Below are positions 1,676-47,218 of a stretch of DNA of 64,000 nt, piece by piece (positions within the stretch are counted from its first letter, which is position 1; each line of letters begins with the position of its first letter). The notes beneath the pieces were generated by a model. The model was given only the letters and a program-made list of their open reading frames with translations, ran no database searches and had not been told where the DNA came from. The position numbers were made by a program, and so were the translations under genes. Source of the DNA: a virus (taxonomy: Duplodnaviria > Caudoviricetes); IMG/VR virus record IMGVR_UViG_3300020414_000008, positions 1-64,000 of that record. The stretch is one strand, 5' to 3'.

Positions 1676-1702
1676 AACCCCTAACGGGATAGGAGAATCT
1701 GT

Positions 1703-2311
1703 ATGAAAAAGTTTGTAAGTAATATACAAACTCTTGTGATTTTTGTTCTCATCATTTTAGTTTTAATGAAAACTTGTGGTGGTCCTTCAGATGTTACTGA
1801 AGTAGAAAAAATTGTAACGAAAGTTGAAACGAGATACGATACTTTGGAAATAGAAAAGAAAGTCTATGTTCCGAAGTATCAAACTCGTATTGTAACTAAT
1901 ACAGTTACCGATACCGTTGTGTTAAAATCTAAAATAGACACTCTTGAAATCCTAAAAGATTACTACAGTAAGTATGTCTATAAAGATACTTTAAAATTAG
2001 ACTCATTAGGTTATATTACTATCATAGATACAATTACCCAAAATAAAATATTTAGTAGAAACTTTGATTCACAAGTATTGATACCAACAACCACAATTAC
2101 AAACGACATTTATTTAAACAAAGCAAAGTTTTTTGGTGGTGTTAGTATTGGGGGTAATAAATCACAAATAAACTTTTTATCAGGAGACCTTCTTTACAAA
2201 TCTAAATCAGACAATGTTTATGGTTTAGGACTTGGGGTAAACGAAAACCTTCAACCAATCATAACAGGTAGAATGTATTGGAGAATAAGATTCAAGAAGG
2301 ATAAAAAGTAG
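1703..2311 (+). CDS. Membrane protein, possible spanin-like lysis protein
   Basis: N-terminal hydrophobic segment ending in Cys, Thr/Asp-rich stalk, amphipathic beta-strand C-terminus; AGGAG SD at 1691-1695. Confidence 0.5.
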   Translation: MKKFVSNIQTLVIFVLIILVLMKTCGGPSDVTEVEKIVTKVETRYDTLEIEKKVYVPKYQTRIVTNTVTDTVVLKSKIDTLEILKDYYSKYVYKDTLKLDSLGYITIIDTITQNKIFSRNFDSQVLIPTTTITNDIYLNKAKFFGGVSIGGNKSQINFLSGDLLYKSKSDNVYGLGLGVNENLQPIITGRMYWRIRFKKDKK

Positions 2312-2315
2312 ATGT

Positions 2316-3890
2316 ATGACCAAACCTCTAAAACAAATCATAAAAGAAGAGTACATTAAATGTGCTAAAAACCCCGTATACTTTTTCAAAAAGTACTGTT
2401 ATATTCAACATCCATCTCGGGGAAAAATACTTTTCAATTTATACGACTTCCAAGAAGACTTAATGGGAGATTTTAGAGAAAACAGATTCAATGTTATTCT
2501 AAAATCAAGACAGTTAGGTATATCAACACTATCAGCAGGTTATTCACTTTGGTTGATGTTGTTTCATGAAGATAAAAACGTTCTTGTAATTGCAACAAAA
2601 CAAGAAGTAGCGAAAAACCTTGTAACAAAGGTTAGGTTCATGCACCAAAACTTACCATCATGGTTAAGAGGTGGAACGGAAGAAGATAACAAACTATCAC
2701 TAAGACTTAAAAACGGTTCTCAAATAAAAGCAACATCTGCAGCAGGTGACGCAGGTCGTTCTGAAGCATTATCACTATTGGTAATTGATGAAGCCGCGTT
2801 TATTGACAATGTAGAATCAATTTGGACATCATCTCAATCTACATTATCAACGGGTGGTGGTGCAATTGTATTGTCAACTCCAAATGGTGTTGGTAATTGG
2901 TTTCACAAAGTTTGGTTACAAGGAACAAGTGGTGACCAATGGAACCCAATAGAATTACATTGGTCAGTACACCCTGAAAGAAATGAACAATGGAGAAGTG
3001 AACAAACAAAGTTGTTAGGTGAGAAGGGTGCAGCACAAGAATGTGATTGTGACTTTATATCATCAGGTTATACAGTAGTAGAAGGTTCGACATTACAGTG
3101 GTACGAAGAAACTCATGTAAAGGACCCAATTGAAAAAAGAGGTTTTGATGGTAACTATTGGTTATGGGACTATCCAAACTACACAAAAAATTATGTAGTA
3201 GTAGCCGATGTTGCAAGAGGTGACTCTACAGATTATTCTGCGTTTCATGTTTTCGATGTTGAGAACGTAGAACAAGTAGCAGAGTATAAAGGTAAAATAG
3301 AAACCAAACAATATGGTGCATTTTTAACATCAATCGCAAGTGAATGGAATAATGCGATGTTAGTGATTGAAAACGCAAATATTGGTTGGGCAGTAATACA
3401 AGAGGTTATTGATAGAAATTATCAAAACCTATATTACTCATATAGAGAACTTGGATATATTGATGAAGATATTCATCTTAGAAAAGGTTTTGATTTAAAA
3501 AGAAAAGATGACATGGTGCCTGGATTTTCTATGACATCAAGAACAAGACCACTTGTTATATCTAAGTTAGATACATATATGAGAGAAAGAACACCAATAA
3601 TTCGTTCACAAAGGTTAATAGACGAATTATTTGTATTTATATGGAACGGTTCACGTGCAGAAGCACAAAGAGGATACAATGATGACTTGGTAATATCATT
3701 TTCAACAGGTTTATGGGTAAGAGATACCGCATTAAAACTGAGACAACAGGGAATGGATTTAACAAGAACAACATTGACTCATATTAGAAAGAACCAACCA
3801 GGCGTCTATAGTAATCGTAACCTTGGAACTGACCCGTGGAAACAGAAAGATGGACACGGAAATGACCATGATTTAACTTGGTTACTATAA
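2316..3890 (+). CDS. gp17: Terminase large subunit (T4 gp17-like)
   Basis: LKSRQLGIST Walker A, LLVIDEAAF Walker B, STPNG motif, ADVARG...DYS and NDDLV nuclease motifs. Confidence 0.95.
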   Translation: MTKPLKQIIKEEYIKCAKNPVYFFKKYCYIQHPSRGKILFNLYDFQEDLMGDFRENRFNVILKSRQLGISTLSAGYSLWLMLFHEDKNVLVIATKQEVAKNLVTKVRFMHQNLPSWLRGGTEEDNKLSLRLKNGSQIKATSAAGDAGRSEALSLLVIDEAAFIDNVESIWTSSQSTLSTGGGAIVLSTPNGVGNWFHKVWLQGTSGDQWNPIELHWSVHPERNEQWRSEQTKLLGEKGAAQECDCDFISSGYTVVEGSTLQWYEETHVKDPIEKRGFDGNYWLWDYPNYTKNYVVVADVARGDSTDYSAFHVFDVENVEQVAEYKGKIETKQYGAFLTSIASEWNNAMLVIENANIGWAVIQEVIDRNYQNLYYSYRELGYIDEDIHLRKGFDLKRKDDMVPGFSMTSRTRPLVISKLDTYMRERTPIIRSQRLIDELFVFIWNGSRAEAQRGYNDDLVISFSTGLWVRDTALKLRQQGMDLTRTTLTHIRKNQPGVYSNRNLGTDPWKQKDGHGNDHDLTWLL

Positions 3891-3891
3891 A

Positions 3892-3925
3892 TTTGGATAT
3901 AAACTATTTTTTTTGTATATTTATA
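3892..3925 (+). promoter_or_regulatory. Composite host-type promoter (TTTG-N20-TATATTTA) overlapping the TATTTATA motif
   Basis: TTTG at 3892-3895, TATATTTA at 3916-3923, TATTTATA at 3918-3925, upstream of the portal gene. Confidence 0.5.
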
Positions 3926-3963
3926 GTTTGTAGACGTATACAATATAATTAGAAAACATAATT

Positions 3964-5850: not shown

Positions 5851-5899
5851 ATTATTTTTAGATATTTATATTGTAGTTGTTAGTAATTAAGGTAGAAAA

Positions 5900-6736
5900 A
5901 TGGGAAAATTAAAACATAGTAAATTCAAGAACACAGGGATTCTGTTTGAACTATTAGTCAGACAAATCGCATCTGACACTTTGTCGGATAATACTTGCTA
6001 TGCAACCAAGATTATACAAAACCACTTTAGAAAAGGTTCTCAATTAGCAAGAGAACTTAAGTTATATCAATCACTTACAAAAGAAAACTTTGATTCTGAA
6101 TACAAAGCATCAGAATTCTTAAATATTATATTGAAAGAAAGAGCAAAGTTAAACGAAGGTGTACTTAGAAGAGAAAAGTATAACTTAATTAAGTCTATAA
6201 AAGATTCTTATATTATAGAAGACTTTTTTAAATACAGAGTTAGTAATTATCGTGAGATGGCATCAGCATACAAACTATTTGAAAATGTTGAGTCAACATC
6301 TCCAAAAGAGTATGTAGAATGTAAGAATACTATATTCGAAGCAATAACTACAGACAAGGTTGTTATCAAAGAAGAAAAAGTAAGTGAAGAATATTCTAAA
6401 CAACCAAAAGAGGTTAGATTATTAGCATATAAATTTTTAGTAGATTCATTTAATTCTAAGTATTCAGGTTTAAGTGAATCACAAAAACTTATTTTGAAAA
6501 ACTATATCAATAACATTGATAATTCAGATACATTAAGAAAGTTTGTAGTTTCAGAAGTAGCAAAACTTAGAAGAGAACTAAAGTCAATTAAAATCTCAGA
6601 TAAGGTTACTAAAATAAAACTAAATGAAACTGTAAATTTAATTAGTGAACTTACTAAACATAAAGTAATTAATGAAAATCAAATTCTTGCATTGTTAAGA
6701 TATCATCAATTACTTCAAGAGTTAAGGAGAAAATAA
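5900..6736 (+). CDS. Conserved head-cluster hypothetical protein
   Basis: 278 aa ORF with KHSKFKNTGILFELL N-terminus, between portal and protease; TATTTATA at 5863-5870. Confidence 0.75.
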   Translation: MGKLKHSKFKNTGILFELLVRQIASDTLSDNTCYATKIIQNHFRKGSQLARELKLYQSLTKENFDSEYKASEFLNIILKERAKLNEGVLRREKYNLIKSIKDSYIIEDFFKYRVSNYREMASAYKLFENVESTSPKEYVECKNTIFEAITTDKVVIKEEKVSEEYSKQPKEVRLLAYKFLVDSFNSKYSGLSESQKLILKNYINNIDNSDTLRKFVVSEVAKLRRELKSIKISDKVTKIKLNETVNLISELTKHKVINENQILALLRYHQLLQELRRK

Positions 6737-7284
6737 TGTCTAAATTTTTACTTGAACAACTCGATAAAAGATTCGAAGAATTAGAAGAAAAGAAAACTGT
6801 TCTACTTGGACAAGAAGAAGAGGAAGAAGAGACTAAGGACGAAGCAAACGTTACAGGTAATTTAGACGGTGGAGCAGGTCCACCAAAAACTCCATACGCA
6901 TTCGCAAAATCTGAAGACGATATGGACGATGAACATATTGAAGTATTAGGATATAAAAAAGCAAGTAAATCAAACAAGAACATCAGGAAGATGGAATCTG
7001 TTGAAGATAAGTTAGAAAAAAAATTAGAAAGTTTGATTGAAGCAAGTTACCGTGACTACAAGAGAGATGACTCGATGAAAGCTCATCAAAAAGTAAACAA
7101 CTCAATCAAAGAGATTAACAGATTGATGTGGGAGATTACTAAGATTGTAGGACAAAACACAAAGTTAAAAACAGAGATGGGTGTAACTAACGAAAAGTAT
7201 TGGAAATCTACACAAAAAAGATTTGGAAAGATTTCTGAAAGAATGTTAAAAGTAGCACGTCAGTTAAGAGAATTGAGTTCGTAA
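6736..7284 (+). CDS. Head-cluster hypothetical protein
   Basis: Overlapping stop/start (TAATG), AAGGAG SD, TPYAF motif, coiled-coil C-terminus. Confidence 0.75.
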   Translation: MSKFLLEQLDKRFEELEEKKTVLLGQEEEEEETKDEANVTGNLDGGAGPPKTPYAFAKSEDDMDDEHIEVLGYKKASKSNKNIRKMESVEDKLEKKLESLIEASYRDYKRDDSMKAHQKVNNSIKEINRLMWEITKIVGQNTKLKTEMGVTNEKYWKSTQKRFGKISERMLKVARQLRELSS

Positions 7285-7285
7285 T

Positions 7286-8068: not shown

Positions 8069-8081
8069 ATAGGGATTAATT

Positions 8082-9006: not shown

Positions 9007-9078
9007 ACAATTTCATTAAATTTATTTTCATATTTATAGATACCTATCAATATTGATGGGTATTTTAATTTATATTAC

Positions 9079-9321
9079 ATGAGTAGAAAAAAAGTTAGAA
9101 GAGAGGCCATGATTGTACCAGGCCGTTTCAAAGCAGCAAAAGTAGTTAACGGAAACATCGAAGCAGCACTTAGATTTTTCAAAAGACAAGTAAAAGAATC
9201 AAACGTTCTACAAGAGGTTAGAGATAGACAAGAGTTTATCAAACCATCAGCTATAAAAAGAAGACAAAAACAACAGGCAGTCAGAAAAGAATATATTAGA
9301 CGGTTAAGAGAACAAAATTAA
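9079..9321 (+). CDS. rpsU: Phage-encoded ribosomal protein bS21
   Basis: VVNGNIEAALRFFKRQV...LQEVRDRQEFIKPSAIKRR matches the bS21 consensus (V..g.ie.ALrrFKr....E.r.R..y.KPS). Confidence 0.85.
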   Translation: MSRKKVRREAMIVPGRFKAAKVVNGNIEAALRFFKRQVKESNVLQEVRDRQEFIKPSAIKRRQKQQAVRKEYIRRLREQN

Positions 9322-9476
9322 ATGGTAAACACTTTATCGTTTTTGAAAGTTCTACCATATTTATTACCGACTTAAATAACACACCTCAATGTGTGTTCAC
9401 ACTAAATAATAGTAAAATCACTATTAAGATTCCAAATAATCTTACTATCCAAAAATTTAATTAAGGAGAAACAGTA

Positions 9477-10700
9477 ATGGCTAAATCTGATTTATTAAAA
9501 GAGGCTATCGCTGACGCAAAAGCAGTAAAAGAAACTGCATTAGCGAACGCAAAGATGGCATTAGAAGAAGCCTTCACTCCAAAACTTCAATCAATGTTAT
9601 CTCATAAGATTGCAGAAGAATTAGAAGAAGAAGAGGAAGTATCTGAAGAAGAGGAAAACTCAAATGAAACGTATGAAACGTATCATAACGAAGAGGAAGA
9701 ATCTAATGAAGATATGAAATCTGAAGAAGAAGATTCTGTATCTGAAGAAGATGAAATGAAATCTGAAGAAGATGAAATGAAGTCTGAAGAAGACGAAATG
9801 AAATCTGAAGAAGACGAAATGAAATCTGAAGAAGATGAAATGAAATCTGAAGAGGAAGAAGTAGAAGAAGAATTAGATTCAGAAGAGGAAGAAGAAGTAA
9901 AAGACATCGTAGACGATGAAATGGATTCTCACGAAGACGAAATGCATGACGAAGAAGAAAAAGAAGAAGGTCCTGCAGACGAAAACGTAGAAGAAAATGA
10001 ACTCGAAGAAGATGAACTTGACTTAGAATCTGTAATCGCTGAATTAGAAGCTTCACTTACTGAAGAAGAAGACGTTGATGAAAATGAAGTTGACGAGGAA
10101 GAAGAAGTAAAAGAAGAATTAGACTCATCTGATATTGGTGACGGCGAAAATGCTGAACCATCTGATGACGCATCCGATTCATCTGACATTGAAAACGATG
10201 ACGAGTTAAACATTGATGAAATCATTGAAACTCTAAAAGAAATGGCAGACGATAAGGTTGAAGAAGAAGAAGAAGTATCAGAAGAAGAAGAAGTATCTGA
10301 AGAAGATATGAAGGATGAAGAAATGGACCCAAGCAAGAACGAAGAAGAGTTGGAAGAAGCTTACAAGACTATCGAGTCTTTAAGAAACACTATCAACGAA
10401 GTTAACTTGTTAAACGCGAAATTACTTTATACTAATAAATTATTCAGAACTTTTGACTTGAACGAGTCACAAAAAGTTAAAGTTATCGAGAACTTTGATA
10501 GAGCAGGAAACTTAAGAGAAGTTAAACTTGTATTTGCTACATTAGGTGAAAACTTAAACGTTGCAAGAAAAAAGAAAACTGTGGTTAAAGAAGGAAGTGC
10601 TTCAAAACCAACTAAGAGTTCAGCTCCTAAGAAATCAATAATCTCAGAAGGTAACGATGTTGCTAACAGATTTAAGAAGTTAGCAGGTTTAATAAAATAA
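9477..10700 (+). CDS. Prohead core/scaffold protein (gp22-like position)
   Basis: Very acidic, between protease and MCP; conserved termini LKEAIADAKAVKETA and EVNLLNAKLLY...RFKKLAG; AAGGAG SD. Confidence 0.8.
   Translation: MAKSDLLKEAIADAKAVKETALANAKMALEEAFTPKLQSMLSHKIAEELEEEEEVSEEEENSNETYETYHNEEEESNEDMKSEEEDSVSEEDEMKSEEDEMKSEEDEMKSEEDEMKSEEDEMKSEEEEVEEELDSEEEEEVKDIVDDEMDSHEDEMHDEEEKEEGPADENVEENELEEDELDLESVIAELEASLTEEEDVDENEVDEEEEVKEELDSSDIGDGENAEPSDDASDSSDIENDDELNIDEIIETLKEMADDKVEEEEEVSEEEEVSEEDMKDEEMDPSKNEEELEEAYKTIESLRNTINEVNLLNAKLLYTNKLFRTFDLNESQKVKVIENFDRAGNLREVKLVFATLGENLNVARKKKTVVKEGSASKPTKSSAPKKSIISEGNDVANRFKKLAGLIK
9741..9854 (+). repeat. 21-bp coding tandem repeat (SEEDEMK x5 plus partial)
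   Basis: TCTGAAGAAGAYGAAATGAAR repeated five times within the scaffold gene. Confidence 0.9.
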
Positions 10701-10722
10701 TCTAAAATAGAAGGAAAATAAG

Positions 10723-12381
10723 ATGAACACACAAAGTTTACTTAATGAATCCGCTGGTTACAATAAAGTAATGTCCAAAGAGGCAAAAAACTTAGTAACA
10801 AAGTGGGAAAAGACTGGCCTTTTAGAAGGTATCGAGTCTGACTTTGAAAGAAGTTCAATCGCAACACTATTAGAAAACCAAGCAAGAGAACTTGTAAAAG
10901 AAGCATCTTCTACAGGTACATCAGCAAACTCTGAAGAGTGGGCAGGTGTAGCTCTACCATTGGTAAGAAGGATTTTCAGTGAAATCGCTGCAAAAGAATT
11001 CGTTAGTGTTCAACCAATGAACTTACCTTCAGGTCTTGTATTCTACTTGGACTTCAAGTATGGTACATCACAGCCAGGATTTGAAACTGGCGCAGGTAAA
11101 GATTCACAAACTGACTCAGTATTCGGTATCACTGAAACTGCAAGTGAGGCAAGTGAAGGTCTTTACGGTGCAGGAAGATTTGGTTACTCAATTAATGATA
11201 CAGCATCTAGCGCATTAGATATCGCTGCAGCATTATCTGACGCAACTAAATTTACTTCAGCATCAGTTAACTTAAATACAGCTGGAACTGAATATGATTA
11301 TGATTCTTCATTCTCAGCATCAATTGCAGCAGCTGGAAACGGTGACCTAATCGTTAAAGTATCTGCATTAACTTCATCAATCGCAGGATTCGATAAAGAA
11401 GGTGTAAGAGGATTTGAAGTATCAGGTTCAGGTATTGCAGAGCATTACCCAGCATTTACTAAATTATCAGGTGCAAACATTACGGCTATCGTAAGAAAAG
11501 TAGCAGCTGCAACAGCAGTAGATAAAGTAGTAATCAAGTATCACAAACAACCAACTGACATTACAAGAGGTGACTTCGAACAGTCTAACTTCGCAGCTAA
11601 TGGTGGTGTAGGTGCAGACTTAGGTATTCCTGAGTTGAATGTTGAATTAAGAAGTGTGCCGATTGTTGCTAAAACAAGAAAGTTAAAAGCACAATGGACT
11701 CCTGAATTCGCACAAGACTTAAATGCATACCACTCAGTAGACGCTGAAGCAGAATTGACTTCAATGTTATCTGAATACATTTCTCAAGAAATCGACTTAG
11801 AAATCTTAGATATGTTATTGGAAAATGCATTAACTACAGGTTATTGGTCAGCTAGAATCGGATATTCTTGGAATGGTGCAGGATTTACATCAAGTGGTCT
11901 TAACGCAGCAGTTGAGAGATATACTCAACAACAATGGTTCCAAACTTTAGGTACTCAGTTACAGAGAGTTTCTAACCAAATCCACGCGAAGACTATGAGA
12001 GGTGGAGCTAACTTTATGGTAGTTTCTCCTGATGTAGCAACTATTCTTGAATCTATCCCTGGCTTCCACGGAAATGGTACAGGTGAGCAATCGCAATTCG
12101 CATTTGGTGTAAGCCAAGTAGGTTCTTTTGCAAATAGATACCAAGTATACAAAAACCCATATATGAAAGAGAACGTAATCCTATTAGGATTCAAAGGTTC
12201 ACAATTCTTGGAAACAGGTGCTGTTTACGCTCCATACATTCCATTAATCATGACTCCTCTTGTATATGACCCAACTAACTTCACTCCAAGAAAAGGTGTA
12301 ATGACAAGATACGCTAAGCAAATGGTGAGAGGTGAGTTCTACGGTAAGGTTCTTGTACATGGACTTGAAGTAATTGGATAA
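10723..12381 (+). CDS. gp23: Major capsid protein (T4 gp23-like)
   Basis: VQPMNLPSGLVF, KTRKLKAQWTPEFAQDLNAYHSVDAEAEL, YAPYIPL and KGVMTRY motifs. Confidence 0.97.
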   Translation: MNTQSLLNESAGYNKVMSKEAKNLVTKWEKTGLLEGIESDFERSSIATLLENQARELVKEASSTGTSANSEEWAGVALPLVRRIFSEIAAKEFVSVQPMNLPSGLVFYLDFKYGTSQPGFETGAGKDSQTDSVFGITETASEASEGLYGAGRFGYSINDTASSALDIAAALSDATKFTSASVNLNTAGTEYDYDSSFSASIAAAGNGDLIVKVSALTSSIAGFDKEGVRGFEVSGSGIAEHYPAFTKLSGANITAIVRKVAAATAVDKVVIKYHKQPTDITRGDFEQSNFAANGGVGADLGIPELNVELRSVPIVAKTRKLKAQWTPEFAQDLNAYHSVDAEAELTSMLSEYISQEIDLEILDMLLENALTTGYWSARIGYSWNGAGFTSSGLNAAVERYTQQQWFQTLGTQLQRVSNQIHAKTMRGGANFMVVSPDVATILESIPGFHGNGTGEQSQFAFGVSQVGSFANRYQVYKNPYMKENVILLGFKGSQFLETGAVYAPYIPLIMTPLVYDPTNFTPRKGVMTRYAKQMVRGEFYGKVLVHGLEVIG

Positions 12382-13160: not shown

Positions 13161-13219
13161 CGATTTAGAAAAATAAATCAATATTTATATAACGTAAACG
13201 TTAATTATTGGAGAAATAG

Positions 13220-18619: not shown

Positions 18620-18722
18620 TAAAATATAATTACATATTTATATTATGTAAGAAATTGGTTTTGGACGGTACATTGTTGTGTACCATAAGTTGTTTAAAAT
18701 AATAAATTAATAGGAGAAAAAA

Positions 18723-20132: not shown

Positions 20133-20151
20133 ATAAATTAAAAAATTAGTT

Positions 20152-20340
20152 ATGTCAAATCACAAACAACTGAAAAAAAGTATACAACAAACCCAACAAG
20201 AGACAAACCTCAAGCTCACTAAACAAGAGCTTGAGGTTCTCTTATTTTTAATATCAAATGGAACCTTTAAGGGTACAGATATTGAAAGAATCTATAAATT
20301 AGCAGTAAAAATTCAAGTAGAACACGATAAATTAAAATAG
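20152..20340 (+). CDS. Small hypothetical protein (possible fibre chaperone)
   Basis: 62 aa; L+.+EL..L...+...+.G pattern shared with the next ORF. Confidence 0.6.
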   Translation: MSNHKQLKKSIQQTQQETNLKLTKQELEVLLFLISNGTFKGTDIERIYKLAVKIQVEHDKLK

Positions 20341-20342
20341 TT

Positions 20343-20534
20343 ATGGAACAATACAAAGGTTTAGAAGAAAACGATTTAAAAGTTATACAAATCGCATTAA
20401 ATAAACTACCAATAACAGGTGCAGAAGCACAGATGATGGTAGGAATCCAACAAAAAATCCAAATGGAGTTAGACTTCTTAAAAACTCCAAAAAGAGGTAG
20501 ACCAAAAAAAGGTAATACAATAATTAAAGGATAA
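20343..20534 (+). CDS. Small hypothetical protein (possible fibre chaperone, paralog-like of previous)
   Basis: 63 aa; LEENDLKVIQIALNKLPITGAEA...KIQ resembles the upstream ORF. Confidence 0.6.
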   Translation: MEQYKGLEENDLKVIQIALNKLPITGAEAQMMVGIQQKIQMELDFLKTPKRGRPKKGNTIIKG

Positions 20535-20590
20535 TTTTACTTTCTTTTATTTTTTCAATACTTATATAAAAGAAATTAAGTTAAATCTTG

Positions 20591-20636
20591 GTTGTTGGCC
20601 CTTATGGGAAGTGGGCACGAATGTGTTACCAACCGC
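20591..20636 (+). ncRNA. Putative structured 5'-UTR RNA (three-way junction)
   Basis: GTTGG/CCAAC closing stem, CCC-TTAT-GGG hairpin, AAGT linker, GGCAC-GAAT-GTGTT hairpin; GC-rich patch in an AT-rich intergenic region. Confidence 0.4.
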
Positions 20637-20652
20637 AAATTAGGATTAGAAT

Positions 20653-21462: not shown

Positions 21463-21472
21463 GGGGTATAAT

Positions 21473-24901: not shown

Positions 24902-24917
24902 TATAAAAAGGTAACAG

Positions 24918-28628
<3,711 letters not shown>

Positions 28629-34010: not shown

Positions 34011-34011
34011 G

Positions 34012-35182: not shown

Positions 35183-35252
35183 GTATTCGTTTTGGAAATT
35201 TTTGGGGTATTTATATAAAGGTAAACCAAAGATTTTAATTTAGGAGAAAATA

Positions 35253-37667
35253 ATGGCAGAAAGAATTGTTAGTCCAGGCGTATTCACAAGAGAGAAAGAC
35301 CTCTCGTTTTTACCTCAAGGTATAGGTGAAATAGGTGCAGCGTTAGTAGGACAAAGTATTAAAGGTCCTGCATTCGTACCAACGAAGGTGGAATCATTTC
35401 AAGAATTTCAACAAGTATTTGGTGGTTTAACTGAAGAATCATACTTACCATATACAGCACAATCTTATTTAGAAGAGGCAGGAACTGCAACAATCGTAAG
35501 AGTTTTAGGTTCAAGTGGATATACAGTAGAAACACTAAACTTAATTGTATCATCTTCAGCAGGTCAAAAAGTAGCAGCGGTATTACACCCAACTACTAAA
35601 GTACTACACGCAGATAATGCAAACTCAATTAACTCACTCGACAACTCAGTAGTAGTTAATCTTAACGAGTCAGCAGCAGCAGGTGGAACAGCAGCATCAG
35701 CATCTATCTTCGCACTACATTTAAGTGCAAGTGGGGCAATACCTGTGTTATCAGCATCAGCACAGTTAGCAGTACCAACAGGTTCGATGAATCCAACAGC
35801 TAACAATTATATAGTAAATACCTTCGGTTACTCTCCTAAAAACGATGGTCAATACGCATACGTCTACCAAGAATTTAGTACATTCGCATCACAATCATTC
35901 GCAACGGGTGAAACTGTGACTGTATCAGTAAATACTTCAAGTGTAGATTATACAAAAGCATATTCTCACGCAACAACACCTTATATTATATCACAAGATG
36001 TATCAGGTGTTACTAAAAACCTATTTAGATTCCATACGTTATCACACGGTAACCCAACAAACTATGAATTTAAAATAGGTATTAGAGATATCAAACCAGC
36101 ATCAGAGGTGCCTGGTTCTGAATACGGTACTTTTACGGTATTAGTAAGAAGAGTAGATACTTCTAAGATTCCTAACTCTGTATTTGGTCAAACTGTACAA
36201 GACAGTGATACAAGACCAAGTATCATAGAAGAGTTCTCAGGTGTAAACTTAGACCCTAACTCACCAAACTATATCAAGAGAGTTATCGGTGATAAAGATA
36301 TTCAAATAGACGCAAATGGAAAAGTAATCTTAAACGGTGACTATCCAAACGCATCTAAACATATTAGAGTAGAGGTTGACAGTGATGTAGATTCAGGTGC
36401 AAACAATTCAACTCTTGTACCATTTGGATTTGCAAAACTAACATCACCACTACCAAGTGGAGTAACTCTACCAGCACCATCATATAATGTATCACAATCG
36501 ATAAGTAATGAATACAATAAGAGAGCATTCTTAGGATATTCATATGACTTCTCAACTACAGATAACTTAAACTACTTAAGTCCAACTCCTGACTCAGTCA
36601 CGACTACAGTTGGTGATAAGTTCTTATTGAGTAACTGTGAATCAAATGGTGCAGCAATCGCATTAAATGATGGATTGATAGATAACAAAAAATTCTTAGT
36701 ACCATTCCAAGGTGGATTTGACGGATTCCAACCAAACAGAAAAGTATTTGTTGGTTCTTCAATTGTAGCAGGAAACTCTCAGGGACTTGATATGTCAAGT
36801 GCAACTGCAGGTGGAACTGTAGCATATAGAAAAGCAATAAACGCTTTATCAAATCCTGATGAGTATGATATGAATATGTTAGTGTTGCCAGGTGTTATCA
36901 ACAGATTACACTCTTCAGTAACTACATTCGCAAAGGATATGGTAGAAGATAGACAAGACGCATTCTATTTAATGGACGCGGGAGCATATCAAGATTCAAT
37001 CGCAACAGTAGTTAACTCACTAACTTCATTTGACTCAAACTACGTTGGTACTTATCACCCATGGGTTAAAATCCTTGACACTGATAAGAACAAACCAATT
37101 TGGGTACCACCAAGTGTTGTTATCCCTGGCGTTATAGCATTTAATGACGCAGTTGCAGAACCATGGTTCGCACCAGCAGGTCTTAACAGAGGTGGATTAC
37201 CAAATGTAATCGAAGTTAAAACAAGATTAACTCACACTGAAAGAGATACGTTATACGAAAATAGAATTAACCCAATCGCAACATTTCCTGGCCAAGGAGC
37301 AACGGTATTTGGACAAAAAACACTCCAAGCAAAACCAAGTGCACTTGACAGAATCAATGTAAGAAGATTGTTAATAGCATTGAAGAAGTTCATCGCATCA
37401 TCTTCAAGATATCTAATTTTCGAAAACAATACGGCAGCGACAAGAAACAGATTCTTAAGTATCGTTAACCCATACTTAGAATCAGTACAACAAAGACAAG
37501 GTCTTTTCGCATTCCGTGTAATTATGGATGAATCAAACAATACACCTGACGTGATTGATAGAAACATCTTAAAAGGAGAGATTTTTATACAACCAGCGAA
37601 AACTGCAGAGTTCATAGTACTTGATTTCAATGTACTACCAACAGGTGCAGCGTTCCCTGAAGGATAA
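35253..37667 (+). CDS. gp18: Tail sheath protein (gp18-like)
   Basis: SPGVFTREKD N-terminus; WFAPAGLNRG, INPIATFPGQG, GQKTLQ, LDRINVRRLL, IQPAKTAEFI. Confidence 0.95.
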   Translation: MAERIVSPGVFTREKDLSFLPQGIGEIGAALVGQSIKGPAFVPTKVESFQEFQQVFGGLTEESYLPYTAQSYLEEAGTATIVRVLGSSGYTVETLNLIVSSSAGQKVAAVLHPTTKVLHADNANSINSLDNSVVVNLNESAAAGGTAASASIFALHLSASGAIPVLSASAQLAVPTGSMNPTANNYIVNTFGYSPKNDGQYAYVYQEFSTFASQSFATGETVTVSVNTSSVDYTKAYSHATTPYIISQDVSGVTKNLFRFHTLSHGNPTNYEFKIGIRDIKPASEVPGSEYGTFTVLVRRVDTSKIPNSVFGQTVQDSDTRPSIIEEFSGVNLDPNSPNYIKRVIGDKDIQIDANGKVILNGDYPNASKHIRVEVDSDVDSGANNSTLVPFGFAKLTSPLPSGVTLPAPSYNVSQSISNEYNKRAFLGYSYDFSTTDNLNYLSPTPDSVTTTVGDKFLLSNCESNGAAIALNDGLIDNKKFLVPFQGGFDGFQPNRKVFVGSSIVAGNSQGLDMSSATAGGTVAYRKAINALSNPDEYDMNMLVLPGVINRLHSSVTTFAKDMVEDRQDAFYLMDAGAYQDSIATVVNSLTSFDSNYVGTYHPWVKILDTDKNKPIWVPPSVVIPGVIAFNDAVAEPWFAPAGLNRGGLPNVIEVKTRLTHTERDTLYENRINPIATFPGQGATVFGQKTLQAKPSALDRINVRRLLIALKKFIASSSRYLIFENNTAATRNRFLSIVNPYLESVQQRQGLFAFRVIMDESNNTPDVIDRNILKGEIFIQPAKTAEFIVLDFNVLPTGAAFPEG

Positions 37668-37715
37668 AAAATAAAAAAAAGACTATTTATTAGAAAGAGA
37701 TAATAGGAGACATAA

Positions 37716-38204
37716 ATGGCACAATTATTAGACCCAACAGAAATTATGTTCACGAACTTTGAACCTAAAATGTCAAATAGGTTCATCATGTACATCGAAG
37801 GAATACCTGCGTACTTAATCAAAACGTCAGCAAGACCTGAGATTCAGAACGGTAAAGTGACAATCGACCACATTAACGTAAGAAGATATGTTAAAGGTCG
37901 TTCAGAATGGCAAGACTTAGCAATCACTCTATATGACCCTGTAGTACCATCAGCGGCACAAGCAGTAATGGAGTGGGTAAGACTACATCATGAATCAGTA
38001 ACAGGTAGAGATGGATACTCTGACTTCTACAAAAAAGACATCACATTTAACAGTTTGGGTCCTGTTGGTGATAAAGTAGAAGAGTGGACATTAAAAGGTG
38101 CCTACATTCAATCAGCAAACTTCTCAGATATGGACTATACAGGAGAAGACTTAGCGACAGTAGAAATGACACTTACATACGATTACGCAATTTTACAATA
38201 CTAA
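37716..38204 (+). CDS. gp19: Tail tube protein (gp19-like)
   Basis: Follows the sheath; W..LAITLYDP, EEWTLKGAY, LTYDYA motifs. Confidence 0.85.
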   Translation: MAQLLDPTEIMFTNFEPKMSNRFIMYIEGIPAYLIKTSARPEIQNGKVTIDHINVRRYVKGRSEWQDLAITLYDPVVPSAAQAVMEWVRLHHESVTGRDGYSDFYKKDITFNSLGPVGDKVEEWTLKGAYIQSANFSDMDYTGEDLATVEMTLTYDYAILQY

Positions 38205-38259: not shown

Positions 38260-38321
38260 ACTTTTAGTTATATACTTATTAGTGTATACAAAGTAATGGT
38301 TAACCAATATAGGAGTTTAAA

Positions 38322-38585
38322 ATGGCATACAATTTAGTAAGACGTAAAGAAGATAACGTTGTAGAATGGTTCGGTCACGGTTATACTTGGGTAGACAAAG
38401 ATAACGGTGGTGAAGCAGCAACTCACTTTACTATTTCGGAAGAAACTGAAGAGATGAACTTACCAACTGACGGATGGGATTATATCGGAAGAGATAAAAT
38501 CACTATGGATGACGCAGATGTACCTGAAGATAAAGAAGCAGGAGCAATCTTAAACGGTTCAGACGGAAATTATACTTGGGCATAA
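38322..38585 (+). CDS. Small acidic hypothetical protein in its own transcription unit
   Basis: TACTTATT motif at 38273-38280, AGGAG SD, flanked by terminators. Confidence 0.7.
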   Translation: MAYNLVRRKEDNVVEWFGHGYTWVDKDNGGEAATHFTISEETEEMNLPTDGWDYIGRDKITMDDADVPEDKEAGAILNGSDGNYTWA

Positions 38586-38608
38586 GTTCAAAATCTTCAA
38601 AAAACACT

Positions 38609-38634: not shown

Positions 38635-38706
38635 GTATTAATTAATCTGCTGTTTCATATATATTATAGTACAGTACATTAAAAAAGATATAAAACGAGT
38701 TTTATT

Positions 38707-39784: not shown

Positions 39785-39789
39785 TAGAG

Positions 39790-39813
39790 ACCCAACGTAA
39801 ATGTTGGGTTTTT
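39790..39813 (+). terminator. Rho-independent terminator
   Basis: ACCCAACG-TAAA-TGTTGGGT followed by TTTT. Confidence 0.75.
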
Positions 39814-39846
39814 ACATATTTATACTATATGAACAGAGGAATTCCT

Positions 39847-40071
39847 ATGAAAACTATTAAAGAATCAGATTTAAAAAAAATATTTGACGCGTATGGTTTA
39901 GATGAAGGTATCTTTGATATCTTTACAAAAATGAGACTAAAAAAGAATATCAAAGCAATTGATAATGAAATAGACTCAAAAATAGAAAAAGTAAAAAACC
40001 CTAAACAACGAGACGCAATACGACAACTACAAAAAGCTCTTAGAAAAGCACATTCATTGGATGCTATATAA
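39847..40071 (+). CDS. Small hypothetical protein
   Basis: ATG 39847 has GAGGA 6 nt upstream, preferred over the track start at 39829; TATTTATA at 39817-39824. Confidence 0.6.
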   Translation: MKTIKESDLKKIFDAYGLDEGIFDIFTKMRLKKNIKAIDNEIDSKIEKVKNPKQRDAIRQLQKALRKAHSLDAI

Positions 40072-40084
40072 TTAGAGGAGTACA

Positions 40085-42421
40085 ATGGCAGAGTCTAACG
40101 AACAAAAAAAACAGGCGTATATTGAACAAATAAACCTTGCTGAAAGGTTAAAAGGTATTGTTCAAGAAACGAATATTGAAAGCGACAATGCTTTGAATAT
40201 CGCCGTTGATTTGGAAGAAAAACTGAAAGACCGAATCAAATCTGCAGAAGGTGTTAAAGCGTTAGACGAAGCAATCAGTGAATTATTACTTGAACAGGCA
40301 AGAACTAAGTCTGATATAAATCAAGAAATGATTGATGAACTTACAACTACAAGAGACATTTTAAAACTTGAAGAAGAACGAAAAGACTTAATGGATGGTC
40401 TCAACGACAAATTAAAAGACGCCGCAGGACTAAATAATGACTTTGTTAAAGGATTTATGCAAGGTGGTGGTATTGGAGTTGGTATTGTCGTAGCAACAAA
40501 AGCATTAGAACAATTCCAAAAACTAATGGATAGTACAGTAGGTCTTGCTAAAGACTTATATATTGAAACAGGTGCATCTGCAGCAGAATCAGGAAGAATG
40601 GCAGGTGAAGTATTTAAAGCAGGATTTAGTATAGAAGGTCTGTTATACGGATTTGATGGACTTGCCTCAGCAGCAAAAGAATCATCTGAGTATTTTGGAA
40701 CAACTCGTGGAATCACATCCGAAATGAATAAAAATGTTGCAGAATTAACAGCACTAACAGGTGACGCAGCATCTTCAGTAAAATTAAACGCAATATTCAA
40801 TGAAGCATCAGGTTCAGCAGCAGACATGACTGATGAAATAAGAGCGATAGCAACAAAAGAAGGTGTTAACGCTAATGCCTTATTTAAACAAATGGCAGGT
40901 TCGGCAGGAATATTAGTTGGAGCATCAGCAGAACAACTAAAGAATCTTGCGAAAGCAACTGCGGAATTACAAAAACAAGGTGTTTCAATGCAAATGATGG
41001 AAGAGATTTCAGGAAACGTATTAAACATAGAAAGTTCTTTACAAGCAGAAATGAAAGCAAGAGCATTGGGTCTTGATGATATGGCAGGTTCTGCAAATGA
41101 ATTAAGAGCAGCAGCAATGGAGTTCCAATTCGGAGATGAAGCAACAGGTATGCAAATGATGGGAGACGCACTCGCATCAGCAAATCTTAATATGGAATCG
41201 TTTGGTGAGATGACTCGAGCAGAAAAAGAAGCATCCGCAGCATTGATGGGTACCACGGTTGATGGTTTATCTGATATGATAATAAAACAGGACCAATTCC
41301 AAAAATTAAGAGAAAAGAATCCTGATTTAAGTATGGAAGAACTAAAAGCCATACAAGAACAACAAGAGGAGATGGAAGCATTTAAACAAAGTGGTATAAG
41401 TGCAATGAGTTCCATCGGAGCAGCGATTGGACCACTTATTGGTCAATTTTTGGTAATGAAAAAGGTTCAGACAGGAAGTATGTTTGGTGGTGGAAAAGGT
41501 CCTAATGTAGGTAAAATGGAAGCACCTGAAACACCTAAAAATATGGACGCTAAAAAATCAAAAGGTATTAAGGGATTCTTAAAAGGACTCAGAGATGGAT
41601 TACAGTCATTTGCAAAAGGTGCAGGTAAAACACTATTAGGTGCCGCCGTTTTAGCAGGGGTTGTAGCAATATTAGGTGTTGGATTTAAAGTAGCGATGGA
41701 AATATTGGGTGATGTTGACCCTGTGGGAATGTTAGCATTTTCAGTATCAATAGGGATATTAGGAGCAGCACTCGCTCTGATGGGAGCAATAGGTGGAAAC
41801 GTAATTATGGGTGCAGCAGCACTTGCGATTGTAGCAGTCGCGTTGATACCAGCAGCATTCGCATTTAGTTTATTAGAAAATGTAGACATAGGTAAAATGA
41901 TTGCCTTCTCTATAATGTTACCTCTACTTGCATTAGCAGCAGCCGGACTTGGATTTATTGCTCCATTTGTCATGGCAGGGGCAGCAGCATTAATGGTATT
42001 AGGATTAGCAATAATACCAGCAGCAATAGCGTTTGGGATGTTAAGTGACTCAAACATGGAAGGTATAGTTGATAAACTTGCGACATTAGGTCAAGTAGCA
42101 GGTCCATTACTAATGGTTGGTGCAGGATTAGTTTCAATCGCAGCAGGATTGGCATTGATGGGATATATGGGAATGGGAGCATTACCTATATTAGGAATGA
42201 TGTTAGCATTGTCGGCAGCAGCACCCGCTCTACTCGCGATGGGGTCAATGTTTGGACTCGGTGGTGGTGGAGATGATAGTGGTGCAGAAGAAAGTGACCC
42301 AATCAACTACGATAAATTGGCAACAGCATTAGCAAGTCAACCAATGCAAATAGTTATTGATGGTAAGGTTGTTAGTGAATTTTCAAGAATTCAAAACGTA
42401 AGACAAAGTAAAAAATATTAA
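40085..42421 (+). CDS. Tape measure protein
   Basis: Long Ala/Gly/Met-rich helical protein with hydrophobic C-terminal repeats and IVIDGK end; downstream of tube and chaperone. Confidence 0.8.
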   Translation: MAESNEQKKQAYIEQINLAERLKGIVQETNIESDNALNIAVDLEEKLKDRIKSAEGVKALDEAISELLLEQARTKSDINQEMIDELTTTRDILKLEEERKDLMDGLNDKLKDAAGLNNDFVKGFMQGGGIGVGIVVATKALEQFQKLMDSTVGLAKDLYIETGASAAESGRMAGEVFKAGFSIEGLLYGFDGLASAAKESSEYFGTTRGITSEMNKNVAELTALTGDAASSVKLNAIFNEASGSAADMTDEIRAIATKEGVNANALFKQMAGSAGILVGASAEQLKNLAKATAELQKQGVSMQMMEEISGNVLNIESSLQAEMKARALGLDDMAGSANELRAAAMEFQFGDEATGMQMMGDALASANLNMESFGEMTRAEKEASAALMGTTVDGLSDMIIKQDQFQKLREKNPDLSMEELKAIQEQQEEMEAFKQSGISAMSSIGAAIGPLIGQFLVMKKVQTGSMFGGGKGPNVGKMEAPETPKNMDAKKSKGIKGFLKGLRDGLQSFAKGAGKTLLGAAVLAGVVAILGVGFKVAMEILGDVDPVGMLAFSVSIGILGAALALMGAIGGNVIMGAAALAIVAVALIPAAFAFSLLENVDIGKMIAFSIMLPLLALAAAGLGFIAPFVMAGAAALMVLGLAIIPAAIAFGMLSDSNMEGIVDKLATLGQVAGPLLMVGAGLVSIAAGLALMGYMGMGALPILGMMLALSAAAPALLAMGSMFGLGGGGDDSGAEESDPINYDKLATALASQPMQIVIDGKVVSEFSRIQNVRQSKKY

Positions 42422-42431
42422 GGGATAGAGA

Positions 42432-45104: not shown

Positions 45105-45106
45105 CT

Positions 45107-45412
45107 ATGAAAAGATATAGTAAAATAGATATTATTAAAAAAGAAGGTCAAAGACGTTTTACTGAAACGGTAAGATACCCATTAATACCACCAAGTATTG
45201 GTGATACATATATTGTTGCTATGCAAGGTGATAGACTTGACAACCTTGCGTATGAATATTACAAAGACCCATCACTTTGGTGGATACTTGCAAGGGCTAA
45301 CAAAATTGGTTTAGGAACTTTAAATATAGAATCAGGAAAACAAATCAGAATTCCTGAAAATCCACAAACAATCATAGATGAATACAATCGTATAAATAAA
45401 AAACAGGAGTAA
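45107..45412 (+). CDS. LysM-type baseplate wedge protein (gp53/tail X-like)
   Basis: QGDRLDNLAYEYYKDPSLWWILARAN...G.QIRIP. Confidence 0.8.
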   Translation: MKRYSKIDIIKKEGQRRFTETVRYPLIPPSIGDTYIVAMQGDRLDNLAYEYYKDPSLWWILARANKIGLGTLNIESGKQIRIPENPQTIIDEYNRINKKQE

Positions 45413-45415
45413 GTT

Positions 45416-47218
45416 ATGGGATTAACGCTAGGAAACAGAGCACTACCATTACCTTCTGATTTTATGGAAACCCCTACCTCAAGAATAGGTAAAGGTGTTG
45501 GAGTTCACAAAAGAGCATACGCAAAACTAAGATATATTGGTCGAAGTAATAAAGAAGGATATGTTATAGGATGTCCAAATGACGCGGTAAAAACCATTGA
45601 AAGTAATGTTCAACAAACTCATTCTAATTTATTAAGTTCAGAAGGTGGTAGATTAACACCAAGACCTGTTTTAGAATCTGTATCTATGGCAAACGATGGT
45701 GGACAAGACCTTTCAGACGCAATGTTATTTGAACTAAGTGTAAGTTGTAAAGTATATAATAAAAATGATTTTGACGCGATAGACCAAACTTTCTTTACGC
45801 CAGGACATAGATGTGCAGTTGATATAGGATGGGTCGGTGGTGAAGCAGTTACTGTTAAAGGCGATATTTGTGGTTTTGACTTTTCAATCAATCAAGATTT
45901 ATCTTATGACGTTACCATAAAAATAGGTGGTATGACAGATGGTGTTAAAGGAGCAGACTTGATTTTTGGTAAAGGTATTTCTTTTGGTAGTCTTACCTAC
46001 ACAGACCCCGAAGATGATTCAAAAGAAATTACTCCAACAGATATAATAAGTGCATTAACAGCAGCATCTACTTTAAATAAGTCTCAAGCATTAGCAGGTA
46101 CAGCAAGACAGTATAAAAACAATATATTAAATTCTCAATTTGTTACAGTAAAACATATACAAGATGAAGGTGGTTGGTCAAACTTTTGGGGAACCAACAG
46201 AGAATCTATGGATTATATAAATCTTAAAAGTTTAGTTTCACTAATAAATAGAAATGTAAAAGACGGTAAAGTTTTTGGTGATAATCCATTTGAGTTCGAC
46301 ATACAATACGGTAAGAATAATAAAATGGACAAAAATATATTTTCGGCAGACCCGTATACGATGTTACTATCTCATAGTACAAGTGCACTTGAATATGGTC
46401 CAAAAGCAAAGTTAACAGGTGCACCACAGGGGTCAACACCTGAAAGTAACATATATTTGTCAATAGCGTATTTACAAACTCAATACGACCAACTGAAAAA
46501 CCCACCAACAATGGGTGAAGACGGTGGAGAAAATAAAGAAAAAGCAGTATCTACTGTGAAATACTTACAAACTATATTTAATAAAATAAAAGATTGTTCG
46601 GGTGGTTACATTCGTTTGTATTTTTATTCAGACCCCGACCAAGAGGGACAGTTAATTATTTGTAATAGAGGAAATAATGTAAGTAATAACTTCACTAAAA
46701 TATCTATGACGAATGGATTTGAAAAGGGTATTAGAGATGTTAACTTAACGTCTAATTTAGATTCAGATATGATTGGACTTGCTACCAACGCAGCAATGTC
46801 AGGAAAATATAGTAGTCAATTAGGAAAACTATATCCCGACTGTTACAGAAAACCCGATGATAGTCAAAAAAACGATACAGGTCCCTCTGCAGAGGAAAGA
46901 TTAGACGAAGCAAAAACGGGTCTTGGTGATAGAATTAGTGAAGACGATGTTACAACAGCAAAATCTGCATTAAAAACATATGTCATGGGATTAAATGAAA
47001 TTCCAACTTTAACATACAGTTTAGAAGCAACTGTAAAATTTGACGGATATGCAAGTCCTGATGGTGGTCCTAAGTATGGTGACGCATTTCAAATAGATAG
47101 ATTACCCGCAAGAATGAATACTTCTAATATATTCTTCGTAGTAACAAAGATAGCAAACGATTACAGTGCAGGTGATTGGACAACAACTGTAACAGGTTTA
47201 ATGATGGTAGGTAAATAA
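45416..47218 (+). CDS. Putative baseplate hub protein
   Basis: Synteny after the LysM gene; PG....DIGW, FDFSIN.D.SYDVT and F.VTKI......GDWTTTVTG motifs. Confidence 0.55.
   Translation: MGLTLGNRALPLPSDFMETPTSRIGKGVGVHKRAYAKLRYIGRSNKEGYVIGCPNDAVKTIESNVQQTHSNLLSSEGGRLTPRPVLESVSMANDGGQDLSDAMLFELSVSCKVYNKNDFDAIDQTFFTPGHRCAVDIGWVGGEAVTVKGDICGFDFSINQDLSYDVTIKIGGMTDGVKGADLIFGKGISFGSLTYTDPEDDSKEITPTDIISALTAASTLNKSQALAGTARQYKNNILNSQFVTVKHIQDEGGWSNFWGTNRESMDYINLKSLVSLINRNVKDGKVFGDNPFEFDIQYGKNNKMDKNIFSADPYTMLLSHSTSALEYGPKAKLTGAPQGSTPESNIYLSIAYLQTQYDQLKNPPTMGEDGGENKEKAVSTVKYLQTIFNKIKDCSGGYIRLYFYSDPDQEGQLIICNRGNNVSNNFTKISMTNGFEKGIRDVNLTSNLDSDMIGLATNAAMSGKYSSQLGKLYPDCYRKPDDSQKNDTGPSAEERLDEAKTGLGDRISEDDVTTAKSALKTYVMGLNEIPTLTYSLEATVKFDGYASPDGGPKYGDAFQIDRLPARMNTSNIFFVVTKIANDYSAGDWTTTVTGLMMVGK

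Follow-up and report, generated by a model that had tools for sequence, protein, structure and literature searches.

A bS21 gene in the late region of a T4-like phage

We analyzed the first 64,000 nucleotides (below, the window) of the virus record IMGVR_UViG_3300020414_000008 (Duplodnaviria; Caudoviricetes), in which a phage gene for the ribosomal protein bS21 (rpsU) lies among virion genes, some of them preceded by Shine-Dalgarno (SD) sequences. An earlier note on this DNA had proposed that the phage bS21 acts as a ribosome-specificity switch in favor of the SD-bearing messages, an interpretation that is partly supported by our results. The source is a single virus record of 180,769 bp with a GC content of 34.6% (94% complete according to CheckV), and the window makes up its first third.

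Nearly all genes of this 181-kb genome are carried by the plus strand. As judged from its gene content, the phage is a T4-like (Straboviridae/Kyanoviridae-like) myophage, because a gp23-type capsid protein, a gp20-type portal, a gp21-type prohead protease, a sheath, a tube and UvsX are all present. The capsid protein (gene 10723-12381) has matches to 2580 phage records, mostly from enterobacterial and cyanobacterial hosts, the nearest being Microcystis phage Mel-JY01 (57% identity), Flavobacterium phage immuto (54%) and an uncultured 484-kb phage. The recognized virion-side genes encode terminase (start at 2316), portal (3964), prohead protease (7436; PF03420), PhoH (12498) and a head-tail adaptor (32316), and the recognized tail genes encode sheath (35253), tube (37716), baseplate hub (38707) and baseplate wedge (45107). 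Replication genes (ssb, UvsX, exonuclease, DnaB and two ribonucleotide reductase (RNR) subunits) start at about 48 kb. Portal, sheath (PHROG 23, E 4e-74), tube (PHROG 4542, E 3e-24) and UvsX were identified through PHROG matches. The bS21, terminase, portal, sheath and tube genes named in the earlier note were confirmed, and so were the genes for baseplate hub and wedge, prohead protease, PhoH, ssb, UvsX, DnaB and RNR; the "scaffold" (9477) and "tape measure" (40085) proteins of that note have the SD sites described for them, and these two names come from position alone, no family match having been found. As most SD-bearing genes, inside as well as outside the window, received no name from PHROGs or Pfam, genes were counted as virion genes by named anchors, position and late promoters.

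The bS21 gene (9079-9321, plus strand) encodes 80 amino acids and is, by its profile matches and alignments, a genuine bS21 gene. It matches Pfam Ribosomal_S21 (PF01165) with E 9.8e-15 and 54.5 bits against a curated cut-off of 27, and TIGR00030 with E 1.2e-13 and 50.6 bits against a cut-off of 28.95. The core of the protein is intact (AALRFFKRQ, KPS at residues 55-57 and the C-terminal helix) and aligns without gaps to Protein Data Bank (PDB) chains of S. aureus, Bacteroidota and E. coli type. The N-terminus is extended by about 15 residues of basic character; basic extensions of about 15-25 residues are common to all bS21 proteins of this phage family and are absent from cellular bS21. An alternative start at Met11 (9109) was rejected: the extension is conserved at the protein level in relatives, and GAGG stands just 2 nt from that ATG. 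Genes for bS18, bS6 and S1-domain proteins were searched for in the phage and none was found, bS21 being the only ribosomal protein revealed.

The gene is located between the prohead protease and capsid genes (in the order terminase, portal, protease, bS21 and capsid) and is co-directional with all its neighbors. It occupies the same place in Mel-JY01 and in 59 of the first 80 IMG/VR relatives, and its distance to the capsid gene downstream is 1.1-1.8 kb in relatives with a listed distance and about 1.1-1.5 kb in the first 50 loci with bS21. There is no SD within 20 nt before its ATG. A late-type promoter box, TATTTATA, is located at 9031-9038 (plus strand), 41 nt before the start, followed by a 10-bp hairpin (9040-9063) and a T-rich run (9040-9072 in total, plus strand; RNA fold -14.3 kcal/mol, z -4.26). 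Profile matches, late box and upstream sequence thus agree with the earlier description of a real, late and SD-less bS21 gene.

The arrangement of the TATTTATA box, the hairpin stem ACACCTATC...GATAGGTGT and the T-run is kept before bS21 in five relatives (L009, L011, L016, L022, L024). The hairpin may be a terminator-like element or a 5' stem. Transcripts begun at the box would miss part of its 5' arm, and the element may therefore end upstream read-through while the bS21-scaffold-capsid unit starts afresh; alternatively, it may serve as an attenuator or 5' stabilizer.

Shine-Dalgarno sequences are concentrated on virion genes

Genes were called without regard to SD, as the longest non-overlapping open reading frames (ORFs) starting at the first ATG past the end of the previous gene, and an SD was scored where GGAG or GAGG ended 4-10 nt before the start. 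The SD core was found before 32 of the 230 starts (13.9%) of the 181-kb genome; the background frequency was 2.3% at internal ATGs and 3.2% at random positions, and the core is thus enriched approximately 5-fold at starts. Spacers of 4-10 nt, mostly 5-8 nt with a peak at 6 nt, were observed, and the motif was nearly absent further upstream. The presence of the core at a fixed short spacing above chance points to SD-led initiation sites, for which pairing with the 16S rRNA is predicted. Anti-SD pairing energies, also suggested in the earlier note, were computed, and duplex-energy scoring against CACCUCCUUU was dropped as noisy, since purine-rich coding strands gave 9% of "hits" at random positions; the motif and spacer rule is what showed the enrichment.

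As the earlier note had supposed, SD sites are concentrated on virion genes: in the virion blocks (1-47.8 kb and 141.6-180.7 kb) 18 of 66 genes carried an SD vs. 14 of 164 in the rest of the genome (Fisher p=5e-4). The enrichment was retained within intergenic-gap classes (23 vs. 6%, 29 vs. 19% and 33 vs. 6%; stratified permutation p=3e-4). For the 64-kb window alone the counts were 10/40 and 1/19 (p=0.085), so that significance needs the whole genome. The abundant non-late genes ssb, RNR, UvsX and DnaB had no SD, and neither had the portal, terminase, oxygenase and glycosyltransferase genes inside the virion block; portal and terminase had been named beforehand as exceptions.

The individual sites of the window, all on the plus strand and read from the upstream sequence, agree with those listed in the earlier note, including 10 strong ones (AGGAG, AAGGAG or GGAG with spacers of 4-8 nt). 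AGGAG precedes gene 1703-2311 (SD at 1691-1695, spacer 7 nt) and, with a spacer of 6 nt each, gene 18723-20132 (18712-18716), the tail sheath gene 35253-37667 (35242-35246), the tail tube gene 37716-38204 (37705-37709), gene 38322-38585 (38311-38315) and gene 45416-47218 (45405-45409); as part of GAGGAG it also precedes the 778-aa gene 40085-42421 (40076-40080, spacer 4 nt). AAGGAG was found before gene 6736-7284 (6724-6729, spacer 6 nt) and before gene 9477-10700 (9463-9468, spacer 8 nt), which occupies the scaffold position just 5' of the capsid gene, and GGAG before the 1431-aa gene 13220-17515 (13210-13213, spacer 6 nt). The major capsid gene has a weaker AAGGA (10711-10715, spacer 7 nt), and the start at 39847 is preceded by AGAGGA (core GAGG at 39836-39839, spacer 7 nt). 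Weaker AGGA or AGGG sequences stand before 20653, 21473, 32316, 33483, 34012 and 42432, and the starts at 188, 9079, 28680, 29289, 38707 and from 48101 to 63718 are SD-less.

The region 39790-39847 contains a terminator hairpin (ACCCAAC...GTTGGGTTTTT, 39790-39812), a late box (39817-39824) and two in-frame ATGs, of which only the second has an SD. Given the late promoter at this place, 39847 is a better start than the ATG at 39829 chosen by the ORF caller, and the ORF is probably six codons shorter than its longest reading.

Promoter classes

The TATTTATA box resembles the T4 late box, and 27 of its 31 copies in the genome lie 13-118 nt upstream of a start. An SD was present on 24 of 122 genes whose nearest upstream promoter is late vs. 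7 of 98 genes with promoters of other classes (p=0.01), and most of the SD-bearing genes in the middle of the genome are also located behind late boxes.

Replication and middle genes are preceded by a two-box element, ATTTGGA-N18-(ttt)GTATATT(agt), with sites in the window at 48645-48683, 53245-53275, 56211-56264 and 63464-63494. The first of them (plus strand) is an example of a promoter before an SD-less start (ATG 48684). At 48684, 56272 (DnaB) and 132647 the element ends about 8 nt before the ATG, and the corresponding mRNAs are therefore predicted to be leaderless or nearly so. Among relatives, the two-box promoter was found on the forward strand only, with 10 copies in the close relative G137, three in a genome of the immuto clade and three in a phage whose bS21 is of the Tyr type (see below).

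A third class consists of tandem ATTTAACA-N3-ATTTAACATTAgAA repeats directly 5' of the ATTTGGA box, at no fewer than seven sites (47790-47830 in the window; 101080-101120, 101920-101955, 105120-105160, 115880-115915, 128590-128630 and 130790-130830 in the genome). These repeats may mark an early class of promoters or be bound by a regulator.

It should be mentioned that the part of the window from 20000 to 28000 has a GC content of 42-47% against a background of 33-35%, over two very long ORFs (21473-24901 and 24918-28628).

The anti-SD contact position in the phage bS21

In Flavobacterium johnsoniae, the 16S tail is guided into the bS18/bS6 pocket by two residues of bS21, Tyr54, which stacks on A1534, and Ile55; bS21 of Bacteroidetes also stands out by its non-basic tail (PMC7797042). 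The Tyr54 position was set by alignment to PDB chain 7jil_z and lies 12 residues past the Ser of KPS (KPS+12). At KPS+12/+13 the phage protein has Arg69-Lys70. The KPS+12 residue is Tyr in 25 of 26 sampled Bacteroidia, Arg in 29 of 30 Alphaproteobacteria, and Arg or Lys in 29 of 30 sequences from other classes of Bacteroidota; the Bacteroidia sample was drawn at class level, a phylum-level sample having given only non-Bacteroidia-like sequences, and one unpublished genome included in an alphaproteobacterial sample (G105) contributed no locus. The net charge after KPS is +7 in the phage protein, with medians of +3 (range -1 to 7) in Bacteroidia and +7 in Alphaproteobacteria. Both Bacteroidia-type features, the Tyr54-Ile55 pair and a weakly basic C-terminal domain, are thus absent, and contact position and tail charge place the phage protein with the general, SD-compatible bS21 proteins. 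Three residues past Arg69-Lys70 there is a Tyr72-Ile73 pair.

The phage family includes both types: the clade of the phage itself (L005-L029, G137) and that of Mel-JY01 have Arg or Lys at this position, and two other clades (A and B) have Tyr or Phe. The Tyr-type protein of one relative (L062) matched, of all PDB entries, only the two Bacteroidota ribosome structures.

Distribution of bS21 and SD in related phages

The pipeline described above was applied without changes to 203 loci; of the more than 600 IMG/VR relatives found by the capsid gene, 160 were read. Loci were counted as lacking bS21 when they included no less than 3.5 kb of sequence upstream of the capsid gene and gave no match in six frames. 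Among capsid-centered loci with at least eight genes, 68 with bS21 had an SD on 331 of 1166 starts (28.4%) and 57 without bS21 on 36 of 928 (3.9%, i.e., background). After restriction to 117 relatives with distinct capsid genes, an SD was present on at least 12% of starts in 53 of 62 loci with bS21 vs. 4 of 55 without it (pooled starts, 295/1040 vs. 36/895). The earlier note had held that the same bias in relatives lacking bS21 would speak against the switch; bS21-less relatives, including immuto, turned out to be without SD on the same genes.

Whole genomes gave a similar picture. Immuto, a complete genome with a Flavobacterium host, and the complete genome G138 contain no bS21 anywhere, and their strict SD frequencies are 1.3% (background 5.8%) and 1.6% (background 6.9%). 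The corresponding values for genomes with bS21 are 13.2% (background 3.1%) in the phage studied here and 9.4% (2.7%) in G137, both with Arg-type bS21; 11.1% (2.4%) in G136 and 4.9% (2.8%) in G134, both Tyr type; 10.1% (1.6%) in Mel-JY01, Lys type; and 29.6% (1.1%) in Pelagibacter phage Mosig, also bS21-positive.

In immuto (L002, L003, L342-L344) and G138 (L319-L327), starts are preceded by SD-like words about four times less often than random positions are, and the G content at -14 to -5 goes down to about 9%, a pattern that amounts to active avoidance of SD-like sequence.

The gene at the scaffold position had a strict SD in 45 of 53 distinct loci with bS21 vs. 7 of 57 without it, and many bS21-less loci keep a degenerate AGGA there. 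Specifically, AAGGAG was seen in L168, L170, L173, L182 and L183, and AGGA in L102, L175, L176, L178, L179, L189-L192 and L201; in the immuto subclade neither was found. This looks like a stepwise decay of one conserved SD within the bS21-less clade.

The bS21 gene itself was SD-less in 47 of 47 loci of the three main clades (A-C). It carried an SD in 6 of 53 loci, all belonging to the basal lineage or the outgroup, where about half of the genes have one. The basal relatives L061, L088, L093, L107 and L113 have Leu at the Tyr54 position (Phe in the outgroup L116), and in these six an SD is present on 44-60% of genes, bS21 included. The host of this lineage probably makes use of SD, and the lineage may show the condition from which the family started.

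In clades A and B, 15-30% of the structural genes are preceded by an SD, and nearly every locus has one before the gene at the scaffold position. As their bS21 bears a Bacteroidia-specific signature, the Tyr-type clades very probably infect Bacteroidia. The association between bS21 and SD is strong in raw numbers, agrees with what is known of ribosome biochemistry and runs in the predicted direction at every informative contrast among low-GC clades; in the low-GC members, SD use seems to require bS21 without being ensured by it.

Host of the phage

The host of the phage studied here fairly probably belongs to Bacteroidia. This assignment is suggested by (i) the composition of its SD-less starts, (ii) the two-box promoter, which it has in common with the immuto clade, and (iii) a plurality of Bacteroidota-labelled contigs from metagenome-assembled genomes (MAGs). 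The SD-less starts of the phage have G at 0.68x the strand G and T at -1 in 60% of cases; the values are 0.44-0.56x and 42-59% in immuto, G138 and Tyr-type phages, and 1.05-1.15x and 33-36% in Mosig and Mel-JY01. By this composition the phage groups with the former and not with the latter. The GTDB contigs bearing the capsid gene all come from MAG bins with mixed and unreliable labels; the largest group is Flavobacteriales/Bacteroidota, and the others include Pelagibacter, Rhodobacterales, Omnitrophota and an archaeon. The Arg-type bS21, and early genes that are less SD-depleted than those of immuto, are against, or neutral for, a Bacteroidia host.

One MAG of an uncultured Flavobacterium sp. 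(G005) includes at least three small contigs (C196, C197, C207; loci L205, L211, L212, L118 and L119) with Arg-type phage bS21 or capsid fragments of this family, and its own Tyr-type rpsU is located on contig C79. The phage contigs may be a binning artefact or a hint to the host.

A possible ribosome switch and its alternatives

The ribosomes of F. johnsoniae are blind to SD unless bS21 is missing or its pocket is mutated (PMC7797042, PMC9976891, PMC13000457). Ribosomes without bS21, or with mutations in the bS6/bS18/bS21 pocket, release the 3' tail and initiate on SD mRNA; replete ribosomes need an SD of 13 bp, which single mismatches defeat, and leave short or weakened SDs unread (PMC9976891, PMC13000457). 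A replete ribosome of Bacteroidia would accordingly gain nothing from a short AGGAG. Its retention at fixed spacing in probable Bacteroidia phages calls for some factor freeing the anti-SD, and an SD-less variant bS21 gene, driven by a late promoter and located beside the most SD-dependent genes, is the obvious candidate.

The following course of events can be suggested. The bS21 gene would be transcribed from its late promoter and translated without SD. The most heavily used late genes (those of the scaffold position, sheath, tube and large virion proteins and, more weakly, the capsid) would rely on a short SD, AGGAG at about 6 nt before the ATG, and early and middle genes on A/T-rich, often near-leaderless starts. 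The host ribosome, probably of the Bacteroidia type, would read SD poorly, its anti-SD tail being held in the bS21/bS18/bS6 pocket. Late in infection the phage bS21, which is without Tyr54-Ile55 and has a basic tail as in the SD-using group (Alphaproteobacteria, as sampled), would occupy the bS21 site of the host 30S subunit; the anti-SD would be freed, and the SD-bearing late mRNAs would gain a translational advantage. That the phage bS21 re-tunes the host ribosome in this way is plausible though unproven, and we give it somewhat less than an even chance. A broader version, according to which phage bS21 takes the place of host bS21 late in infection and unlocks SD reading in any host that hides or under-uses its anti-SD (Bacteroidia above all), so that late mRNAs with an SD form a class of their own that prevails over host and early phage messages, and according to which late SDs are kept only while bS21 is kept and decay once it is lost, appears rather unlikely. 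The basic N-terminal extension is an alternative candidate for the active feature of the phage protein.

Several observations weigh against the proposed switch. Only about 20% of late genes carry an SD, portal and terminase being among those without it, and the early genes of this phage are less SD-depleted than those of immuto. The C-terminal alignment, suggested as a check in the earlier note, supports the switch only in part: the Bacteroidia contact residues are absent here, but SD frequency among relatives is 27% with Arg-type, 23% with Tyr-type and 30% with Phe-type bS21. The Arg or Tyr type was therefore rejected as a predictor of SD use (27% vs. 23-30%), and since relatives keeping Tyr54 use SD equally, loss of this contact residue is not a general enabler of SD use. 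Nine loci with bS21 (L028, L059, L187 and L200 among them) are almost without SD. In a FastTree phylogeny of the 117 distinct capsid proteins, bS21 changed state four times (immuto clade, L077, a clade with 39-53% GC, and outgroup L108), each change defining a clade; in the four independent pairs SD moved the same way in two to three and the opposite way in none, a number with which a sign test cannot reach significance, and the association may reflect clade or host. In Mel-JY01, which was isolated on the cyanobacterium Microcystis and has a bS21 of the Lys type, SD is biased towards late genes in the same way (no paper on this phage was found in the literature). Finally, as regards a Bacteroidia host, the strict Bacteroidia promoter TTTG-N17-21-TAnnTTTG is not enriched in the phage genome (two copies, as in shuffles), and a search of the phage for a T9SS sorting domain revealed none.

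Some of these points fit an explanation by host range, which we consider possible but doubtful. The clades with bS21 would infect hosts that already read SD weakly (cyanobacteria, SAR11 or others), and SD would mark the most expressed late genes; the bS21-less clades would have moved to Flavobacteriia, where SD is useless and decays, and bS21 would serve takeover or maintenance apart from SD. The small number of state changes and the pattern in Mel-JY01 speak for this explanation, as do the high SD frequency of Mosig, in which bS21 accompanies SD on 30% of all genes, the SD found in the higher-GC bS21-less relatives L051, L108 and L115, and the general bacterial Arg type of the bS21 studied here, which would be expected if it mimics the protein of a non-Bacteroidia host. 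It accounts less well for clades A and B, which have SD on structural genes despite a Tyr/Phe signature that suggests Bacteroidia hosts. Their bS21-less sister clade, which includes a proven Flavobacterium phage, has not kept the late-gene SD, and this difference argues against a pure host confound. The resemblance of the SD-less starts to those of Flavobacterium and Tyr-type phages rather than Mosig or Mel-JY01, the lack of SD on early genes, even abundant ones such as ssb and RNR, and the promoter type that the phage has in common with the immuto clade also speak against it.

It is improbable, but in keeping with cellular data, that SD functions without the phage protein. Host bS21 might become limiting late in infection through rpsU shut-off, degradation or new 30S assembly, and ribosomes free of bS21, which in F. 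johnsoniae do read SD (PMC9976891, PMC13000457), would translate the late mRNAs. Phage bS21 would then serve otherwise, in ribosome upkeep, against stalling-based defence or in packaging (defence-related or packaged roles were proposed by Chen et al.; PMC9723584), and its co-occurrence with SD would be inherited. The SD use of phages whose Tyr-type bS21 should still occlude the anti-SD, and the bS21-positive phages without SD, would be understandable on these terms; that every low-GC bS21-less lineage is also without SD on orthologous genes, and that bS21 is the consistent SD-less member of an SD-rich cluster, would be left unexplained.

It is very improbable that GGAG is a late-gene signal of some other kind, for instance a target for RNA processing, as GGAG is for T4 RegB, or a sequence bound by a transcription or packaging factor: the motif is tied to late genes and has mostly the form (T/A)AGGAGA and not the full GGAGG, but it keeps its distance of 4-10 nt to the start, is near-absent further upstream, occurs with or without an adjacent promoter and is complementary to the universal CCUCC core of the anti-SD.

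Comparison with known systems

The link between the presence of bS21 and SD-bearing late genes is new; in the literature we found no paper connecting phage bS21 with such genes. A similar known case is that of freshwater myophages predicted to infect Bacteroidetes (Chen et al. 2022, ISME Commun; PMC9723584). Their bS21 gene, too, is embedded in the cluster of terminase, portal, prohead protease and capsid genes and has late expression signals, its product is extended at the N-terminus, and a role in favoring translation of late structural mRNAs was proposed for it. In those phages, however, bS21 lies on the opposite strand and not co-directionally, and position 54 is Tyr or another aromatic residue in 61 of 61 proteins, whereas it is Arg here. 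The authors concluded that phage bS21 still blocks the anti-SD; ribosome-binding sites were not analyzed there (PMC9723584).

The proposed switch resembles rpsU autoregulation in F. johnsoniae (Jha 2021, PMC7797042; McNutt 2023, PMC9976891; Arpin 2026, PMC13000457) in that one small protein decides on SD pairing. The cellular circuit controls a single gene, rpsU, via a 13-bp SD and by the absence of bS21, whereas the phage protein, as proposed from sequence, would act on dozens of late genes with SDs of 4-6 nt by substitution of a variant bS21. An exchange of bS21 during infection was speculated upon by McNutt et al. (2023; PMC9976891).

Pelagibacter phages HTVC008M and Mosig (MT647606) are also T4-like marine myophages encoding bS21, and the HTVC008M protein is reported to enter E. 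coli ribosomes (Mizuno et al. 2019). Unlike here, bS21 of Mosig adjoins genes for an AAA-family protein, a peptidase and hypothetical proteins instead of lying between protease and capsid genes, SD is found on about 30% of all its genes and not on a late subset, and the host ribosome of these phages is not known to hide its anti-SD. In Francisella, a swap of bS21 variants is also reported to re-weight the translation of specific mRNAs (PMC9578407); these variants are cellular paralogs of a gammaproteobacterium, and neither a phage nor anti-SD occlusion is involved.

Significance

Of all ribosomal proteins, bS21 is the one most often encoded by phages, and its function there has been open since 2019. 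According to published proposals, phage bS21 favors phage mRNAs; the feature by which it would recognize them is not named there. A candidate feature can now be named: a short SD on late genes, present almost only in the bS21-carrying members of the family, from which the bS21 gene itself is exempt in the main clades. This feature is tied to a cellular mechanism that has been solved biochemically in F. johnsoniae. If the proposed switch is true, it would provide a clear example of how a virus changes the choice of start sites by exchanging one ribosomal protein; it would also explain SD-like sites in phages of hosts that do not use SD, and would bear on gene calling in metagenomes and on host prediction.

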